In this document: piece after piece, positions 938 through 9,100 of the stretch
Position numbering within the stretch: position 1 is the first letter of the stretch
Layout of the letters: each line of letters opens with the position of its first letter
Assembly (NCBI GenBank): GCA_036501665.1
Contig: DASXZW010000063.1
Location: 8,214 to 72,213, forward strand
Direction of reading: 5' to 3'
Source of the DNA: Verrucomicrobiia bacterium
Lineage (GTDB): Bacteria; Verrucomicrobiota; Verrucomicrobiia; Limisphaerales; Palsa-1400
DNA: 64,000 nt
Notes under the pieces: model-generated
Told to the model about the DNA's origin: nothing
Seen by the model: only the letters and a program-made list of their open reading frames with translations
Database searches by the model: none
Program-made: the position numbers and the translations under genes

Positions 938-1165
938 TTATTCATTGAAGCAGGGGCTGAGACGGAAGGTCTCGATACAGTTCTGACAGACGCAGACGCG
1001 GTTCTGAAATTCACGCGGTATTCGCGCAAGCAATCCATCGGGAATGTTTATCCTGGCGCACCAACAAGGACCCTTGTAGGCCGATGAGACACAAAGCTGG
1101 CATTCGTTCCCATGATGGCATAATGGGCACTTCTCGCCGTTGGTGGAAATTTCATTGAGGGTCAT
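938..1165 (-). CDS. cysteine-rich CWC family protein
   Basis: These are the last 75 codons of ORF 938..1393, read from ATG 1165. The pattern [16 protein letters not shown]...VCVCQNC matches the Cys-rich CWC family. It overlaps the upstream gene by 14 nt, which suggests the same operon. Confidence 0.6.
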
Positions 1166-1934
1166 ACATGGAGTTGTTGGAAGAAAGGAATCCTGTTCCC
1201 GAGACCACGCTATTTGCGCCGTCGGCATTATTGGTATAGCAGCCCCGAAGGGATTCGGCGTGGCCATCGCAGAAAGCGCCGTTGCTGAGTTGTTGATGGC
1301 GGAAACCTTGTGTTCCGCCCCAACGGCCGATGAAATTTTCGTCGCCGGGATTTGGCCAGGGAGCGCGCATGAATTTATCAGCGCCAGAGGCATATTGGCC
1401 GTCGCCGAAAAGGATTGTTCCGCTTGAGCGAAGCACGTCTGAACCTTTTGCGGGATCGGGGATTGATTCCTGTTGGCCGTGGCCGATGTAACTGGTGTTG
1501 TAGTTGTAGCCAGTGTAGGGATCAGTCATCCAGTCGGAAGCGCCAGTGTATGAAGGACATTGTTGGATTTGGGCCATTGTCTGACTTTGCCAGAGCAATC
1601 CGGGAATGACCGTTTGGGGACTGCCATAGACCGTCGTCAGGTCCCAGCATTCGGCTTCCATTGTGTCGCCGTTCTGAACATAGCAATAAGCAATTGGGTA
1701 GGTGTTGCGATTGTCATCCAAATAGACGCTTGCGGCGACTCCCATTTGGCGAAGGTTGCTGATGCACTGGATTCGCTTGGCTTCCGCTTTTGACCCGGTC
1801 AACGCCGGCAAAAGAAGAGCAGCAAGAATGGCGATGATGGCGACCACCACAAGCAGTTCAATTAACGTAAAGGCAAAACAACGCGCCCCTGCGCCGGTTA
1901 AGCGGCATGAATCGGAGCGCGTGGTTCTGTTCAT
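1152..1934 (-). CDS. prepilin-type N-terminal cleavage/methylation domain protein, DUF1559 (H-X9-DG) family pseudopilin-like
   Basis: [26 protein letters not shown] is the type IV pilin-like leader and hydrophobic helix. The C-terminal [12 protein letters not shown] matches H-X9-DG. Confidence 0.85.
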
Positions 1935-1973
1935 CGGGGCCTTTATTGGAGGCAGAAGCAGCGTAACTTTGTT

Positions 1974-2019
1974 GTAGGGACCACTTGCTTCCGCGGACGC
2001 CTCGGCGAGGCGTCCCTAC
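1974..2019. repeat. GC-rich REP-like palindrome in the intergenic spacer
   Basis: GGACGCCTC-ggc-GAGGCGTCC (1995-2015) is a perfect 9-bp stem, nested in GTAGGGA...TCCCTAC. No U-tract follows on the minus strand. Confidence 0.5.
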
Positions 2020-2055
2020 CGATGAAAACTAATTTGTGTGCGATTGCCTGCATTT

Positions 2056-4182
2056 TTATTGAATGACGAGCAGGCGATAAAAGGCCTGGTTTGCGGGTGG
2101 GCTGGGGTCCTGCAGGATCAGGTTTCCGACGCTAACAGGCGTGACAGTCGTTACCGGAGTCCAGGTGAGCAAATCGGTTGATCGTTGCAGCGTGTAGGAG
2201 ACATTGGCAAACGGGGTGAATTGGAAACTCGGGCCGCTTGCGTTCGGTTGCGCGGACAATACAGGCGGCGTCATGCGGGTCACAACCAGGGCGGATAGGT
2301 TTGTCGCGCTGGAAATCCATGCTTCATTATTAGTCGCAGCAAGCGTGAACGGAATTGTATTCCAATTGGTCCAGCTCCATTGCAGGACGCGCAAATCGCC
2401 ACCCGCGCCGACGTAATTCCGACCGACGCTTAATCCGACATCCGCAACGATGGTGGTGTTTCCGATGTCCGAAATCGGAGTTGCCGATAGTTGACAGGCG
2501 TTGAGCACAGTTCCAGGAACCGGCGCAAACGCTGAAAATCCACCCAAAGGAACGGCGCTGACCACGGCGTTGGTGACGACGGATTGAACGTTCAATTCGA
2601 CGGCAGTCAGAGTTGAATCTCCCGGAGACTGAAAGGCGAGATTGGTTATTCCTGCATCAATGTCGTCGCTGGTGATCGTAAGCGTATCGCCTTCAACGGC
2701 GGGATTTACCGCGGCGATGGAGTCGATAACGGTGGATGAGCCTGGGGCGGGTTCAATGCGGACATATTGAATCCACGGAAAACCCGATGCTTGCAGATTA
2801 TATCCGGTGCCGCCAGCGGAACCGTCGTAATGATCTAACGCGCTGAAAGCCGTTTGGCCCTCAAAATCTGTCGAATAAATTGCGGGGTCAAGCGGCTTGG
2901 TGGGGTTGGATTGCTCCAATTTCCACGAATGATTTGGACTGTCCCACCGGTACGCGTTTTGAGGGTAGAGCTTTGCCGTGTTGTCAAACGAATACCAATT
3001 TGTGCCGTCGGGGCTCACGGAAACCGTGGCAGAATGGCCGTTGGTTCCGCTGCCGAGAGTGATATCGTCAAGGTCAGTCGAATCGCTGACTGTTCCGGTT
3101 GAGCCGAAGGGCGAAAAAAACGAATTGCCATAGACGATAAGGTCCATGCCGTAAGGATTGTTAGCGTTGTGATATACTTTGCGTCCCATCTTCACGGTGA
3201 TTTGTCCGCCGTTCGTGATTTCCGTGATTAAGTCATTGCGTCCAGGCCCGACATTGTAGGGAGGGTCAATGATGCTGCATCGATTGGTATCGCCGCCGGC
3301 GGCTACATCGAAGAACGTGAGCGAGGGCCGGCCGAGAACGGCATTGGGATTGTCGTAAGGAGGCATCGCAAGGACGTTGCTGGAGCTGACGACCTGAACA
3401 GCGAAGTCGTTCGTGTCCGCCACATAGGCGACGTATGTTCCATCGGGTGATGGGGGGGCTTGTTCGTCATTATTGTAGGCTGCTGTGGCGGCGTCGGCGG
3501 TATTCGTATCGTATCCGGCTGCGGAAACTGAGAAGCCAAGCCATGAACCGTCTTTGATTGGAAGTGTATCCAAACCAAATTCGGCGAACTCCCACTGCCC
3601 GTGAACATAAGCATTACCATCCCAAAATTGATTGGTTCCCCGATCCGGTGAAGCCGGCAACCCCCCGGCGTCATTAAGCTCGGTCCAGGAATTCCAGTTT
3701 GGACCATAATAACCGCCCCAATACAAATCACCATTGTTGACTGGCGATGAGGAATCGATGTTCAAAGCGGGATCGAGTAGAATTCCGTTTTTGAAGGCAG
3801 CGGCGGTGTAGCTCTGGCTTCCATCGGTCACGCCAAAATTTCCCGTTCCGTTGAGGTTATAGCCAATTCCTTCGACATAAGTGCCGTAGGTATCGACGAC
3901 AACCGCGTAGAGGCGGTGATCGGAGGCCAAAATAGCTTTGAACATCTCGGCGCCGGTGGCTTCGCCGTTGAATTTGTAGCCCCAGACCATTGTTTTATTG
4001 GCGACAGGCGCGGGAACCGTGCTGTTGTTGAAAAATTCCGGGGAATTCCACTCGATGACAAGCGCGGCGCGATTGGTGCCGGACCCGGCCCAGAGCTGGA
4101 TATTGTTGGTGGTGATAGCGTGGACGTTGGGAAGCAGGGCGCAGCCGGCAAGGGCCAGCGCGCAGCGGATTCTTTTTATCAT
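2056..4182 (-). CDS. secreted protein of unknown function (708 aa), first gene after the cobalamin riboswitch
   Basis: It has a signal peptide (MIKRIRCALALAGCALLPNVHA) and no catalytic motif was recognised. The C-terminal tail SYTLQRSTDLLTWTPV...AFYRLLV is common in secreted PVC proteins. Confidence 0.8.
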   Translation of the reverse strand: MIKRIRCALALAGCALLPNVHAITTNNIQLWAGSGTNRAALVIEWNSPEFFNNSTVPAPVANKTMVWGYKFNGEATGAEMFKAILASDHRLYAVVVDTYGTYVEGIGYNLNGTGNFGVTDGSQSYTAAAFKNGILLDPALNIDSSSPVNNGDLYWGGYYGPNWNSWTELNDAGGLPASPDRGTNQFWDGNAYVHGQWEFAEFGLDTLPIKDGSWLGFSVSAAGYDTNTADAATAAYNNDEQAPPSPDGTYVAYVADTNDFAVQVVSSSNVLAMPPYDNPNAVLGRPSLTFFDVAAGGDTNRCSIIDPPYNVGPGRNDLITEITNGGQITVKMGRKVYHNANNPYGMDLIVYGNSFFSPFGSTGTVSDSTDLDDITLGSGTNGHSATVSVSPDGTNWYSFDNTAKLYPQNAYRWDSPNHSWKLEQSNPTKPLDPAIYSTDFEGQTAFSALDHYDGSAGGTGYNLQASGFPWIQYVRIEPAPGSSTVIDSIAAVNPAVEGDTLTITSDDIDAGITNLAFQSPGDSTLTAVELNVQSVVTNAVVSAVPLGGFSAFAPVPGTVLNACQLSATPISDIGNTTIVADVGLSVGRNYVGAGGDLRVLQWSWTNWNTIPFTLAATNNEAWISSATNLSALVVTRMTPPVLSAQPNASGPSFQFTPFANVSYTLQRSTDLLTWTPVTTVTPVSVGNLILQDPSPPANQAFYRLLVIQ

Positions 4183-4260
4183 GCTGATCTTTCAATGAGG
4201 TTCGCCGAGAACATTTCGGAGAACGGGTTGTGATTGAGAGACCAGCGCCGAGCCTGGGGA

Positions 4261-4311: not shown

Positions 4312-4399
4312 AAAAGAACCCGCCGAAAAATCGTTTCAGCGGCCTGGCCTCATCCTTCTCTTTGTCGGAGAAGCGGCCTCGCAAAGGCGAAGCCCGACG

Positions 4400-4595
4400 A
4401 GCGTAACCGCGCTGATGTCCTGACTTTCGGGCTTCGAACCTTCCTCCCGCCTTCCCGGCTCGCGAACGAACCAGTGGCTGATGGGAGTTTGTAACCCGTC
4501 ACAGTGGCGCAACCGTCCTCGATTCTCACGAGGTTCCCAGCGTTGGCTACGATGGATGGAAAACCATCCTCTGACTTTCAAAGAACGAGCTAGAA
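4400..4595 (-). promoter_or_regulatory. cobalamin (B12) riboswitch aptamer
   Basis: The minus strand carries, in the canonical order, GGGAACCUCGUGAGAAUCGAGGACGGUUGCGCCACUGUGA, then AGCCACUGGuucguucgcgaGCCGGGAAGGC, then the B12-box-like AAGCCCGAAAGUCAGGAC. Boundaries are approximate. Confidence 0.8.
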
Positions 4596-4716
4596 ATAAA
4601 CCTTTGGCGGCGGGATGCAAGAAGAATTGGTTTTGGTTGACCCATTTTGCTTGGACGCTTCATGAGCGCTCGACGAAAACTTGCGAAAATGCCGATTAAC
4701 GCGGATAGTTTGGAAG

Positions 4717-4965
4717 ATGAGCATCGCTGCAGAAAAAGTGGCCGAGGTATTAGGTTTGCCGGAACAGGATCGCGCATTTCTTGCCCGCGAACTTATTGCT
4801 AGTCTTGACAACATTGTGGACGCTGATGCCGAAGTGGCATGGAATGAAGTCATTGACAGACGATCCCGTGAATTGAGAGAAGGCCGGGTGGACGCGCGCT
4901 CAAATGAAGATATGATTCGCGACATCCGGGCCAAATTGAGTGCTGCACATCGTCAGACATCCTGA
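4717..4965 (+). CDS. addiction-module antitoxin (putative addiction module component type)
   Basis: From ATG 4717 the protein reads MSIAAEKVAEVLGLPEQDRAFLARELIASLD...AWNEVIDRRSRELREG, a typical small antitoxin paired with ParE-like toxins. It overlaps the next gene. Confidence 0.7.
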   Translation: MSIAAEKVAEVLGLPEQDRAFLARELIASLDNIVDADAEVAWNEVIDRRSRELREGRVDARSNEDMIRDIRAKLSAAHRQTS

Positions 4966-5242
4966 GGTCTCAGGAGAATTGGAAGCCGCAGCGCTCTGGT
5001 ATGAAGATCGTGAGCGAGGCTTGGGGACCGAATTTCTGGATGAATACCAAAATACGCTCGACCGAATTTTGGAAGAGCCTGACCGTTGGAGAAAAATCAA
5101 AGGAGACAATCGCAAGCTTAACTTCCGACGCTTTCCCTACGCGATTATCTACAACGTGAACGCCACTACACTTTATATTGTGGCCGTTATGCACCTTTAT
5201 CGCCGGCCTTTTTACTGGTCGCAACGCCTGCGCTCAAAATAA
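4940..5242 (+). CDS. type II toxin-antitoxin system RelE/ParE family toxin
   Basis: HPEVSGELEAAALWYEDRERGLGTEFLDE...FRRFPYAIIYNV...IVAVMHLYRRPFYW follows the ParE-like plasmid-stabilisation pattern. It starts with GTG and overlaps the antitoxin by 26 nt. Confidence 0.75.
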   Translation: MLHIVRHPEVSGELEAAALWYEDRERGLGTEFLDEYQNTLDRILEEPDRWRKIKGDNRKLNFRRFPYAIIYNVNATTLYIVAVMHLYRRPFYWSQRLRSK

Positions 5243-5255
5243 CAACTTTTGACTA

Positions 5256-6143
5256 TTAAAAGACCCGCAACGTCTCGAGGACGGCGCGGATTCGGGGGAC
5301 TTCATGGGTGCGGAATAAATCTGTTTTTCCGAGGGCGGCGAGGACGGCGAAAAAGGGTTCGGCGCAACGCACTTCCTCGCCAAAATATTCGAACGCGTGA
5401 GGGAGCGCGTGGCAAACTGGAAAACCGAGCGAGCGCAGGCGGAAGCTGTTCAAAAACGTCGTCATTTGATGGCGCACACGGGCGGCGCTGTCGTTCAAGT
5501 TGCGGTAGTAGAAGCCAAGTCCGGGGTCGATTAGAATTTTCTCTGCGCCGGCTTGCGTCGCCATTTCAATCATGCGGGCAAAATATTCGCGCATCGCGCC
5601 GATGACATCACCGCTTAAATCAAAGTCACCCACCTCCCGGACATTCGGGCCTTGTACATGACAAATAATCGCCGCGGCCTGATGCTCCGCGACAAGCTTG
5701 AAAATGTCGCCGGCCTCCTCTACTCCTGTCAAATTGATCACCGCCGCCCCGGCTTCAAGGCAAGCCCGCGCGACTGGGGCGCGATATGTTTCGACGGAAA
5801 CAAGAATCCCGGCGGAAGCAAGGCCGCGAACCACCGGCAGCAGTTTATCCCGCTGGGCCGATTCATCCAACAAGGCAGCGTGGGCAAGGGTGGACTCCGC
5901 TCCGACATCAATAATTTTTGCACCCTGCGCCCGCAGTTCCTTGCCCCGTTCGATGGCGCGGTCCGCTGTCAAACAGACACTTTCGCGATACCAGGAATCC
6001 GGGGAAAGATTGATGACGCCCATGTATTCGGGCGCGCTGTTGAATGCAAACTGTTCCCTGCCGATGGAGAACTCGCGGACTTTTGCTGTCGCGGCGTCGC
6101 GATATTTTTCCAGCAATTCCGCCAGATGCTCCAGCGAGAGCAT
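5256..6143 (-). CDS. dihydropteroate synthase-like pterin-binding domain protein (divergent)
   Basis: The DHPS fold signatures GVINLSPDS, IIDVGAEST, VSVET, LIDPGLGF and RTHEV are present. The start is taken at MLSLEH (ATG 6143-6141), which overlaps the upstream stop as TAATG. Confidence 0.65.
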   Translation of the reverse strand: MLSLEHLAELLEKYRDAATAKVREFSIGREQFAFNSAPEYMGVINLSPDSWYRESVCLTADRAIERGKELRAQGAKIIDVGAESTLAHAALLDESAQRDKLLPVVRGLASAGILVSVETYRAPVARACLEAGAAVINLTGVEEAGDIFKLVAEHQAAAIICHVQGPNVREVGDFDLSGDVIGAMREYFARMIEMATQAGAEKILIDPGLGFYYRNLNDSAARVRHQMTTFLNSFRLRSLGFPVCHALPHAFEYFGEEVRCAEPFFAVLAALGKTDLFRTHEVPRIRAVLETLRVF

Positions 6144-9100
6144 TATTTCTTGAACGCCGGGTTGTTCCTCTTTCCGCCAGTTTCGAGGTATGCCACCAAG
6201 TCCCAAATCTCGGACTCGGTCATCGAATTGACCAAACCGTCAGGCATCGGCGACACTTTGGAGAGCCGGCGACTTTGGATGTCAGATTTTTGGATTTCGA
6301 CCTTGGTTCCCTTGATCGGCTCGGTCATCAAGACGATTTTTTGAGCATTCTCTTCGACGATGCGGCCAGTTTTAACGTCGCCGTCCTTCGTTTCAATGAT
6401 CGTGTTTTGGTACAACTCGGAAACGACCTTTGACGGTTCAATGATTGACTCTAAAACGTCGTGCGGACTGAGGCGGCTTCCGACGGCGGCCAACTCAGGC
6501 CCGACCGAACCGCCGCTGCTGCCGAAGCGATGGCACAGAATGCACTGCGCCTGAGTGTAGGCGGCTTTGCCCTTCGCGAACGAGCGTCCTGACTTCGCCT
6601 GGTCAATGTCTGGTTGCAGGTCTTCAACGGTCCACGCTTTGACGAATTTGCTTTTGGATATTTTCGGACCCGTTGAGTCAGTGTCCTTCGGGAGATAGTC
6701 AACCAAAGCAATCTGATCGGACGGCGACAGGTTTTGCACGAATTCATTGCGGAAATTTTTGATGAAGGTCGGAAAGCTTGAGCCGTCGCTGTAATCGCGC
6801 GTCACATCCTTGAAAAACTGCAAAATGTCCGCCGGATGCCCGGCTTTCTCGTGGTCTTTCTTGAACCAGGAAAGGTAATCCTTCTGCTGGTCCAGCGTCC
6901 ACCCATCAACGATATTGCGAAGGCGCAGAACGTAATACGTTTGCTCCTCCTGCGTCGGGGCTTTGTCCAACAATGCGAGAGTTTTGCCGATGGCATCGGG
7001 CGCTTTGAGATAGAGGAGCAACTGGCAAAGTTCACGGTTCACGTTGAAATCGTCCGCGGGATACATCGGGTCCAATTCCGCGACGAGCGGCGTGGCCTGC
7101 TCGGTTTCCGGCTCACCCTGGCGGGCGAAACTGACTTCCAGCACGCGCAATTTCAGCAGTTCGAGTTGTTTGTCCATTCCGGTGAACGGAAACTTTTTCA
7201 ACGCGTTGAGAAGCGGGCGTTGTGTTTCAGGGCCGCCAATCCGCGCCAGCGCAAGCAGCGCAATCATTCCGGTTTCTGGATCGCTCTCCGCCAACGCGCG
7301 GGACTTCCACCATTGGACATCCTGCCATTCCAATGCGATGCGGGCTGCGTAGCGAATCCAGCGGTCGTCGCTGCCGAGGCTTGACCATACGGCATCGACA
7401 ATCCGTGGATCACGTTCGCCGTACAGCGATTCCAAATCGTGGCGCAGGCGGCGGCCTTGTTTTCCGGCGGCTTCATCGGCCAGTTGCCCGGGAGTCTTTC
7501 TCGGCTCCACATATTTTCCGCCGACATACGTCAAACGATACAAACCCGACTCGATGCCGCGACCGCCCGTCGTGAAATAAAGAGCGCCGTCGTTGCCGAA
7601 TTGCAGCCCGGTGAGGTTCAGCGGCGTCCCGCGAAGAACTGTTTCAACGCTGGCGTGATAACTCGCGCCGTTTGGCGTCAGATGAACGGCGAACAATCTT
7701 CCATAGGACCAATCCTCCATCCAAAAGGCATCTTTGTAAGGTTTCGGAAAATCAGACCGGGTGCCGAACATCACGCCCGTCGGCGAGCCGAGTCCGACGT
7801 TGACAAGCGCCGGCAAAGTGTCTTCGTAATATGGCGGAAATTTCCCTGATCCTTCGTGAAAACCGTAATCGCCGCCGGGAACCCAAAGATTGACGCGCGT
7901 TGGGCGATACCAGGCTGTGCCCCAATCCCATTCCATATCGCTGTCAAATCCAAAAAGCTCGCCTTCCGGGCTGAAACCGATGGCGTAAGTGTTGCGAGTG
8001 CCGGCGGCGAACAATTCGACATTTTTCGCGTTCATGTCCATCCGCAAAACGTGCCCGCCAGGCGGCATCATTCCCGCTCCGAAGCCGTTTCCGTCTTCCG
8101 CCCGCTGCAACAATTGGTCATCGGCATAATTGTGGTGAGGCGAGGACGCCAGCAAATCCTTAGGCAAGTGCGTGAAGTTGCCATTAACCATGTAAAGCTT
8201 GTGCTCCGGCCCCAGGACCATATCGTGCGGGCCGTGTTCGCCGCCGTCGTTAAAAGCGCGCAGGAACTCCGGCGCTTCGAACAGATCGCCTTTCGCGCGG
8301 AGCCGGTAAACTCCGTGGCCCTGCGGACCGTCGCCATCGACGTAAAGACAATTATCCACATAGAGCAGCCCCATGGCGGAGGTCACGGGTTGATCAATGC
8401 GTTCGATCTGTTCCACGCCTTTTGGGGAAACTGTGATGCGCAGGAGCTTGCCTTCACTTTGCGGGGAAATAATAAAACGGCCCAGCGGATCAATGGCCAT
8501 TGAGATCCAGGAACCTTCCGTCACGTCGGCGGAGTGCAGCAATTCCAGCTTGAACCCGGGTTCAACGGTGATCGATTTCAACGGCGTTGCCTGCGGGGCC
8601 ACAAAAATATCGCCCCAAGGCTGGTCGCCGAGTTTTGCGACGCTTACGGCGTGATGCCAGGACGAATCGTCGAAATTCACCTTCGTCCAATTCGTCCCAG
8701 GCTTGTCGTTTGAAAACACCCAACTGCTGTCGGTGATTAAGGTATCATTCCACTGCAATCCCGCGTGAGCTTTTGGGTTGTATTCCTGGTGCGCTGCGCC
8801 GGTCGTCGGCATCGTCATTTGCAGGCGCAAGATCAAGCCCGCTGTGGACTGCTCGTTTTCGCACCGCACTGCGATGACGTTTTGGCCCGGAACAATTCGC
8901 CGGGTGACATCGACGTATTTCGGTTTTTTCCAATCATCGACGGTCCCGACTCTCGAACCGTTGATGAAAACCTCGGCCTTGTCGTCGCCGCTGAAGGCGA
9001 TGCGCGATTGGATCAAGCCGTCCTTCGCTGTAAATGTTTTGCGGAAATAGCGAACTTCCTTGGTGGTGGATTCGTTGTTGCTGGAGGTCCAAATCCATTG

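Follow-up and report, generated by a model that had tools for sequence, protein, structure and literature searches.

What is a cobalamin riboswitch doing upstream of an operon that contains no recognizable gene for corrinoid transport or synthesis? The question is raised by a 64,000-nt stretch of a Verrucomicrobiia genome (GCA_036501665.1, contig DASXZW010000063.1, positions 8,214–72,213; hereafter the window, with all coordinates given as window positions), in which a cobalamin aptamer is followed on the same strand by three open reading frames (ORFs) encoding proteins of 708, 260 and 75 amino acids (aa). The first-pass annotation of this DNA had proposed a B12 riboswitch upstream of a three-ORF operon whose cargo is not a known corrinoid gene set, and both proposals hold. 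The aptamer scores 70.7 bits against an Rfam gathering score of 31.5, with model positions 45–169 covered, and is the single Rfam match in the whole window; it lies 230 nt from the start codon of the 708-aa gene, on the same strand. The 708-aa protein is unannotated, and gene annotation and a Pfam scan show no btuB, no btuFCD or other ABC importer and no cob or cbi gene within 10 kb on either side. The principal elements are as follows.

4413..4539, minus strand: cobalamin riboswitch aptamer, RF00174 (cmscan, 70.7 bits, E 2e-15), with an equivalent aptamer upstream in 38/38 ortholog loci
2056..4182, minus strand: ORF for a 708-aa secreted protein, a fusion of module A and module B (see below) with Verrucomicrobia-specific C-terminal parts
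1152..1934, minus strand: 260-aa prepilin-type pseudopilin of the H-X9-DG/DUF1559 kind (PF07963, TIGR02532)
938..1165, minus strand: 75-aa Cys_rich_CWC protein with nine conserved Cys (PF14375)

Our analysis shows that riboswitch, module A, pseudopilin and module B are conserved together across phyla, where A and B denote two secreted modules joined in the 708-aa protein. We put at roughly 60% the probability that this cassette is an envelope apparatus for corrinoid acquisition, induced by B12 starvation.

Orthologs of the 708-aa protein were collected by scanning one genome per GTDB species. With an alignment as the query the scan returned 41 loci, compared to one locus for a single-sequence query. 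A same-strand cobalamin riboswitch lies 100–500 nt upstream in all 38 loci with enough upstream sequence (10/10, 14/14 and 14/14; L023, with about 150 nt upstream, was left out). The orthologs with a riboswitch, which include eight short variants, show 46–83% protein identity. Recurrence of the riboswitch and gene arrangement in 38/38 loci indicates that the association is not due to chance. Some copies of this Verrucomicrobia-type operon (L002, L008, L012, L014, L015, L018, L026, L028, L036 and L041) come from metagenome-assembled genomes (MAGs) labelled Baltobacteraceae, Bifidobacteriaceae, Sulfotelmatobacter or Pseudomonadales; these contigs are probably mis-binned or mislabelled.

A second scan, with small distant relatives as the query, gave 387 confirmed loci, and the best 80 (L044–L123) were examined. 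These represent Planctomycetota, Verrucomicrobiota, Armatimonadota, Kiritimatiellia, Hydrogenedentota, Desulfobacterota, Chloroflexota and Bacteroidota. In 64 of the 80 (16/20, 20/20, 15/20 and 13/20), the same strand bears a cobalamin-class riboswitch (RF00174, RF01482 or RF01689, within 3-kb flanks). Given that the 64-kb window holds one such element, this coupling is far beyond chance. The 16 loci that lack the riboswitch comprise 10 from Bacteroidota, in which the gene is inside a longer operon, three from Armatimonadota, one from Verrucomicrobiae and two with little upstream sequence. A comparison proposed earlier, of orthologs in other Planctomycetota–Verrucomicrobiota–Chlamydiota (PVC) genomes, thus gives a positive answer in 38/38 orthologs and 64/80 distant loci. 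Desulfobacterota have a two-riboswitch arrangement, seen at L066 (470–654, 2299–2420), L104 (899–1082, 2572–2694), L063 (4404–4488, 4579–4820) and L071 (1689–1815, 4155–4247, 4329–4585). Here, the gene that follows the cobalamin riboswitch encodes an AraC-type regulator with a cNMP-binding domain, and a riboswitch of the cyclic di-GMP (c-di-GMP)-I class lies directly upstream of the module A gene; in L063 and L071, the cobalamin-class element is downstream of the module A gene.

What, then, does the riboswitch control? The 708-aa protein has no match in Pfam, NCBIfam or the PDB sequences. Its full-length homologs, more than 262 in number, are all named hypothetical and all come from Verrucomicrobiota-type MAGs. 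Its parts are listed below, with AlphaFold2 (AF2) confidence given as the predicted local distance difference test (pLDDT).

4120..4182, minus strand: Sec-type signal peptide, aa 1–21, with predicted cleavage between VHA and ITT (from sequence)
3415..4119, minus strand: module A, aa 22–256, 'FW.G.G.N ... WGY[RK][FW].G ... G.GY ... GW..G.W' (AF2 and profile search)
2683..3414, minus strand: module B, aa 257–500, 'NPYG.D[LF]IV[FY]GN ... VSVS.DG..W ... GSAGG.G.DL ... YV[KR][VI]' (jackhmmer, alignment)
2224..2682, minus strand: beta-rich spacer, aa 501–653, in Verrucomicrobia-type proteins only (matches in 12/80 distant loci)
2056..2223, minus strand: C-terminal beta-sandwich ending in FYRL, aa 654–708 plus stop codon (BLASTP of short variants; pLDDT 84–91)

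The cleavage-site residue Ala22 is invariant in 33 homologs. A reading of the protein as a lipoprotein, suggested by an LAGC lipobox-like string, was rejected because the Cys is not conserved. AF2 predicts beta strands for residues 501–653 (pLDDT about 60–85), and both this segment and the FYRL sandwich are restricted to Verrucomicrobia. Residues 654–708 sit where relatives have PEP-CTERM or type IX secretion system (T9SS) sorting tails, and may themselves have a sorting role. In the eight ortholog loci with short variants (∼325 aa), only residues 22–256 and the last 55 residues are retained, which identifies module A as the core of the protein. An AF2 model of all 708 residues was poor (pLDDT 60; predicted template modelling score, pTM, 0.36), and its Foldseek matches (carbohydrate-binding module and F5/8-type C; E at least 4e-4, TM ∼0.1) served only to suggest beta-sandwich spacers.

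Modules A and B are adjacent separate genes in many lineages. Other Verrucomicrobia have an operon with the order riboswitch, small module A protein, ∼500-aa protein, pseudopilin and CWC, in which the ∼500-aa protein is colinear with residues 257–708 of the window protein. The 708-aa protein is a fusion of two modules that are encoded by separate genes elsewhere. Iterated jackhmmer searches with residues 257–500 detected module B in 59/80 distant loci, the matches in Bacteroidota being weak and to be treated with care. In its usual form, module B is a separate protein of 280–310 aa with a signal peptide and PEP-CTERM, encoded directly after module A; sometimes it is fused to module A. One module B protein, from Sedimentisphaerales (L060, 2416–3639), ends in a type I dockerin domain in place of PEP-CTERM, a further variation of the surface-attachment device.

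Module A belongs to a large family for which NCBIfam has no model, and the module matches no Pfam family, DUF4465 and DUF5074 included. A profile built from 31 trimmed sequences and run against 1.84 billion representative proteins retrieved 944 representatives (counted at 50% clustering) at E ≤ 1e-3, and 469 at E ≤ 1e-10. These relatives include small proteins with a signal peptide and PEP-CTERM and large Bacteroidota-type proteins with 2–7 copies of the module and T9SS tails. Pfam domains in 70 distant module A proteins are Por_Secre_tail (24), PEP-CTERM (11), DUF5074 (8) and DUF4430 (6). Every family member has signals for secretion or surface sorting (Sec signal peptide, PEP-CTERM or T9SS tail), and the surface-sorting signals vary with phylum.

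The company that module A keeps in Bacteroidota provides a link to corrinoids. The DUF5074 part of one module A relative aligns end to end with PDB entry 9S6C (E 1e-8), which is BtuK1 of Bacteroides thetaiotaomicron btu operon 1, a nanomolar B12 binder, in complex with cyanocobalamin (PMC13616437). An equation of DUF5074 with BtuG was rejected, as the region matches BtuK1 and no BtuG entry. Module A genes of Bacteroidota also have free-standing DUF5074 genes and PKD-domain genes as neighbours. Given the repeated fusion of module A with a family that holds a proven B12 binder, together with a leader predicted to be B12-repressible, the conserved cassette and the sorting signals, extracellular corrinoid capture under B12 scarcity is the most economical interpretation. 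In Bacteroides salyersiae and a related Bacteroides (L112, 2887–6570; L103, 2869–6492), the riboswitch directly precedes a module A protein of >1200 aa, in which module A is combined with an immunoglobulin (Ig) domain and many BspA-type leucine-rich repeats (LRRs), recalling the LRR-like lipoprotein BtuL.

The second gene of the operon encodes the pseudopilin. In the ortholog loci a pilin homolog adjoins the large gene, and the H-X9-DG motif is present in 34/34 complete copies. Among the 80 distant loci, 54 have a same-strand prepilin-type homolog, which precedes module A in 28 cases and follows it in 26; the association thus persists when the gene order changes. The order in Pirellulales is riboswitch, pseudopilin, module A and module B. 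No pseudopilin is present in the Bacteroidota and Desulfobacterota loci. Two motifs characterize the window copy.

1871..1851, minus strand: class III signal motif FTLIELL, with cleavage between CFA and FTLIELLVV (from sequence)
1298..1263, minus strand: H-X9-DG motif, aa 213–224 (from sequence)

The protein scores 26.6 bits with PF07963 N_methyl (cut-off 21.2) and 24.7 bits with TIGR02532 (cut-off 16.3), and its N-terminal helix is matched in the PDB by GspG, PilA and geopilin (E 1e-6). It has the short leader, cleavage site, Glu at +5 and hydrophobic alpha-1 helix of a class III signal. The DUF1559 context described in the first-pass annotation is borne out and proves general. The window copy falls below the Pfam cut-off (PF07596, 16.5 bits versus 23.3, N-terminal part only) and gives no TIGR04294 match at E ≤ 0.1, but it has the H-X9-DG motif and the conserved operon partner, and the cassette pilin of Pirellulales has both a full-length PF07596 domain (E 6e-44) and the TIGR04294 H-X9-DG tail. 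A hidden Markov model of window-type pilins matches the Pirellulales cassette pilins at 1e-20 to 1e-28. The motif and these matches make the window pilin a divergent DUF1559 member. In Pirellulales, an Acido-Lenti-1 RNA motif (RF01687) occurs ∼0.9 kb 3′ of module B (L089, 5707–5751; L092, 5703–5747; L106, 5776–5820); the same motif occurs once upstream of a Chthoniobacterales cassette (L064, 9–55).

The third gene product scores 45.3 bits with PF14375 (cut-off 24, E 1e-11). Its pattern C-x2-C-x5-C-x2-C ... CWC ... C-x-C-x2-C is conserved in 21 copies, and 17 ortholog loci and four distant loci have the domain. This 75-aa ORF is uncalled in the contig's public annotation (JGI 3300036780), despite the significant Pfam match and conserved homologs. 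In six loci (L001, L021, L036, L037, L039 and L041), CWC is fused N-terminal to the prepilin cleavage site (between G and FTLIELL), replacing the leader. Prepilin leaders do not leave the cytoplasmic face, where prepilin peptidase cleaves them off. Given its leader position in the fusions, the CWC domain has to be cytoplasmic, and a free-standing window copy without a signal peptide agrees with this. The earlier description of a Cys-rich CWC protein was right about the identity and the 14-nt overlap with the pilin gene, and the cytoplasmic location is added to it as a correction. In these fusions (e.g. L039, 4213–5211), CWC makes a folded 'leader peptide' of unusual length, about 90 aa. We also considered a programmed frameshift that would join the pilin C-terminus to CWC over the 14-nt overlap, and rejected it because the real fusions place CWC N-terminal to the prepilin site. 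That the CWC family is corrinoid-related is hinted at independently in Sulfurospirillum, where a CWC gene between cbiA and sirC is induced together with the genes for corrinoid biosynthesis (PMC7755780). A homolog search with the 75-aa protein found three close relatives only, so a general link between CWC and corrinoids rests on that one published cluster.

We next consider how the riboswitch might act and how the three genes are arranged. Three predicted RNA elements are relevant.

4320..4342, minus strand: terminator-like hairpin plus U-rich tract, within the leader, after the aptamer and before the start codon (consensus scan; function inferred)
4183..4246, minus strand: predicted helix of 4246–4233 with 4196–4183 (minimum free energy fold and pair list)
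1995..2016, minus strand: perfect GC-rich hairpin (GGGACGCCTCG CCGAGGCGTCC) in the 121-nt spacer that separates the 708-aa gene from the pilin gene (sequence and RNAfold)

The 230-nt leader is unusually strongly conserved in the closest relatives (L002, L003 and L024). In these three, pairing in the hairpin at 4342..4320 is maintained despite changes on both arms. Both arms of the start-region helix are nearly invariant in four relatives, and its 4196–4183 arm is made up of the 14 nt directly 5′ of the AUG. As predicted, this helix would sequester the translation-initiation region. The hairpin and the start-region helix would both suit an OFF-switch, and either could be the operating one. Downstream, the prepilin motif of the orthologs starts 29–341 nt past the upstream stop codon in all loci but one, and tight packing of the large gene and the pilin gene in most orthologs argues for co-transcription. 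In the window, the 75-aa ORF (1165..938) shares 14 nt with the end of the pilin gene, stop codon included. The spacer hairpin at 1995..2016, which is not followed by a U-run, may set different levels for the 708-aa and pilin genes; most orthologs lack such a spacer.

Within 10 kb of the operon on either side are a ParDE-like toxin–antitoxin pair, a pterin-binding gene resembling dihydropteroate synthase (DHPS), DUF3568, a prolyl oligopeptidase and a large cytochrome-c-containing protein. The toxin–antitoxin pair, ParD-like (Unstab_antitox) and ParE-like, lies directly upstream of the riboswitch on the opposite strand (4681–5242, plus strand); it is missing from related loci, where mdh takes that side. 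Conserved neighbours in relatives are the housekeeping genes mdh and folP-cdaA-glmM. The pterin-binding DHPS-like protein (5256–6206, minus strand) scores 126.8 bits, compared to an NCBIfam DHPS equivalog cut-off of 162.6. Its membership in a B12/folate module was rejected, as relatives carry the homolog in the folP-cdaA-glmM block, which differs in strand and in position.

Putting these elements together, we envisage the following. High intracellular cobalamin would act through the riboswitch to turn the operon off, and scarce B12 would allow its expression. After export through Sec, the 708-aa protein would be displayed at the cell surface or beyond it, where module A, probably with module B, would capture corrinoids outside the cell. 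The pseudopilin would be processed by the cell's prepilin peptidase and built into a type II secretion or type IV pilus-like filament, which might either export and hold the capture protein or return the loaded cofactor through the envelope. The CWC protein would work on the cytoplasmic side of the prepilin. How transport is directed, and what the pseudopilin and CWC do, are the conjectural parts of this scheme.

Several results weigh against corrinoid acquisition. Corrinoid binding by the cassette proteins is itself something that we infer. Module A is modelled with high confidence (aa 22–260, 90 sequences; pLDDT 92.6, pTM 0.90), but Foldseek finds no match for the model in the PDB (best E 1.7, TM ≤0.12), which contains entries for transcobalamin, BtuF, BtuG, BtuH, BtuJ and BtuK, although a partial match of ∼70 residues could have escaped this search. 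By the Foldseek test, module A has the fold of neither transcobalamin nor BtuF, BtuG, BtuH, BtuJ or BtuK. Profile searches of the PDB with module A, in narrow and broad versions, and with the Bacteroidota repeats gave nothing useful, and module B has no relative in Pfam or in the PDB, profile search of the latter included. The neighbourhood is another difficulty: besides btuB and btuFCD, no gene for a secretin, a pilus ATPase or an assembly platform lies within 10 kb on either side, leaving the import route and filament machinery unlinked, possibly encoded elsewhere. Moreover, BtuL of B. thetaiotaomicron is riboswitch-controlled and does not bind B12 (PMC13616437), so co-regulation is no proof of binding. 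Finally, the c-di-GMP riboswitch before module A in Desulfobacterota hints at a surface or adhesion role.

The relation of module A to transcobalamin is also indirect. DUF4430 (PF14478), the C-terminal domain of transcobalamin-type (TCN) proteins (PMC4350170), gives no match at E ≤ 1 in the window protein and 33 orthologs. The connection runs through Bacteroidota repeats, which align with the first 100 residues of module A (hhalign 99.3%, E 5e-20) and score 35–37 bits per protein and 19–23 bits per single repeat against DUF4430, for which the cut-off is 23.8. Among the 70 distant module A proteins, the best whole-protein E value for DUF4430 is 1.5e-15. The match spans a helix and the segment 'G.[FY]V..I.Y', co-linear with the stretch that the first-pass annotation had flagged, by eye, as DUF4430-like. 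That resemblance is thus recovered by transitive alignment of the flagged segment, but not by a direct Pfam match or a Foldseek match in the PDB, and single repeats are sub-threshold. Remote homology to DUF4430, transitive via the Bacteroidota repeats and without fold confirmation, is plausible.

If modules A and B do bind corrinoids, the role of the pseudopilin can be read in two ways. In the bolder version, PVC bacteria and Armatimonadota would import B12 without a BtuB-type TonB-dependent receptor, a DUF1559 filament and modules A and B fishing for corrinoids and delivering them through the envelope; we regard this version as rather doubtful. The other is a sub-variant of the same best explanation, differing in the role of the pseudopilin: modules A and B would bind corrinoids, the pseudopilin would be a dedicated adaptor or anchor for type II secretion that takes them over the outer membrane, and import would be carried out by BtuB and BtuFCD encoded elsewhere. 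The N-terminus of the pseudopilin is indeed closest to those of GspG-type major pseudopilins, and the Bacteroidota with T9SS tails have no pseudopilin here, which fits an export role replaceable by another secretion system. However, type II secretion substrates are not known to come with a private pseudopilin, no secretion machinery gene is linked to the cassette, and the cytoplasmic CWC domain on the prepilin leader is left unexplained. We consider capture of this kind, with import left to other genes, possible but tentative.

Readings in which the proteins do not handle corrinoids are less well supported. One is that B12 starvation elicits surface remodelling or adhesion, the cassette supplying adhesins or matrix components that are displayed by way of PEP-CTERM, T9SS or a pilus, tie the cell to B12 producers or biofilms and do not bind corrinoid themselves. 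The c-di-GMP-I riboswitches in front of Desulfobacterota module A genes and the BspA-type LRR repeats of some Bacteroides module A proteins fit this reading, as do the BtuL-type proteins, which are B12-regulated yet non-binding; PEP-CTERM proteins are tied to exopolysaccharide and biofilm systems (PMC1569441). On the other hand, repeated fusion or adjacency with BtuK1-like propellers and DUF4430-positive repeats implicates the ligand itself, and very tight riboswitch coupling in multiple phyla is typical of transport, biosynthesis and isozyme genes, making adhesion unlikely. Another reading is acquisition of cobalt or another precursor rather than intact corrinoids, with H-X9-DG and CWC as possible metal sites. 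B12 riboswitches also regulate cobalt transporters, the CWC gene of Sulfurospirillum is inside a cbi cluster, and there are conserved His, Asp and Cys residues. Yet module A is widespread in gut Bacteroidota beside corrinoid-binding BtuK-type genes, and it has many invariant Trp and Gly but no conserved metal-ligand clusters; the H-X9-DG motif occurs throughout DUF1559, a family whose members are mostly not B12-regulated. We consider the cobalt reading highly improbable.

How does a corrinoid-acquiring cassette compare with known systems? The Bacteroides relay of BtuG, BtuH, BtuJ (DUF4465) and BtuK is likewise controlled by cobalamin riboswitches, secreted or surface-displayed and multi-component (PMC13616437), and, as in that relay, the putative binding modules of the cassette appear to be held off the cell by beta-sandwich spacers. 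The differences are also clear: modules A and B have no sequence similarity to the Bacteroides binders and module A has no fold match, the cassette has no adjacent BtuB or BtuFCD, its partners are a pseudopilin and CWC, and its proteins are not lipoproteins. The BtuG/BtuH-like logic proposed in the first-pass annotation is therefore favoured by the fusion and adjacency of module A with BtuK1-like propellers, but finds no Pfam, PDB or Foldseek match to Btu families behind it. By analogy, the cassette would work like the Bacteroides accessory-binder relay, but it belongs to none of those families. Compared to the beta-domain of transcobalamin and intrinsic factor (DUF4430), module A is larger (∼200 aa versus ∼70), and the cassette has no alpha6/alpha6 barrel partner.

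The window pilin shares the class III signal with E5, the GspG-like helix and the C-terminal H-X9-DG motif with the DUF1559 proteins of Planctomycetota and Verrucomicrobiota; the cassette subgroup differs from the bulk of the family in having a defined regulator and defined partners. Uptake by type IV filaments has a precedent in the competence pseudopilus ComGC, which takes up DNA. For Planctomycetes, the Boedeker model proposes pilus/crateriform uptake of macromolecules (summarised in PMC12673574). Such machines and the cassette both associate a prepilin-type subunit with the entry of an outside ligand into the envelope. In the cassette, however, the ligand would be a 1.3-kDa cofactor, any retraction or import would be hypothetical, and no ATPase, platform or secretin is linked. 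Our literature search found no description of the cassette and none linking cobalamin riboswitches to pseudopilins, DUF1559, PEP-CTERM or Planctomycetes. The cassette is not explained by any annotated system, and coupling to a pseudopilin has no known precedent among vitamin uptake systems.

These findings bear on both B12 ecology and the DUF1559 family. To our knowledge, corrinoid uptake is understood so far only for the Bacteroides relay and the E. coli BtuB paradigm, and how the abundant Verrucomicrobiota, Planctomycetota and Armatimonadota of soil, peat and aquatic habitats source corrinoids is a gap in B12 ecology. The modules define two unannotated, widespread families, A and B, tied to the BtuK-type binders of gut Bacteroidota. 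Cultured carriers include Adhaeretor mobilis HG15A2, Planctomycetales bacterium ZRK34, Bacteroides salyersiae DSM 18765, Segatella hominis and Desulfosarcina cetonica; the locus in A. mobilis HG15A2 is NZ_CP036263.1:5384316-5390921. DUF1559/H-X9-DG is the largest paralog family in planctomycete genomes and has no known function; Planctopirus limnophila alone has 68 paralogs of unknown function (PMC10632474). A riboswitch-locked DUF1559 subgroup with two secreted partners in several phyla offers the first testable physiological context for this family. If filament import is true, it would be the first functional assignment for any DUF1559 member, and would suggest that DUF1559 paralogs are ligand-specific uptake pseudopilins.

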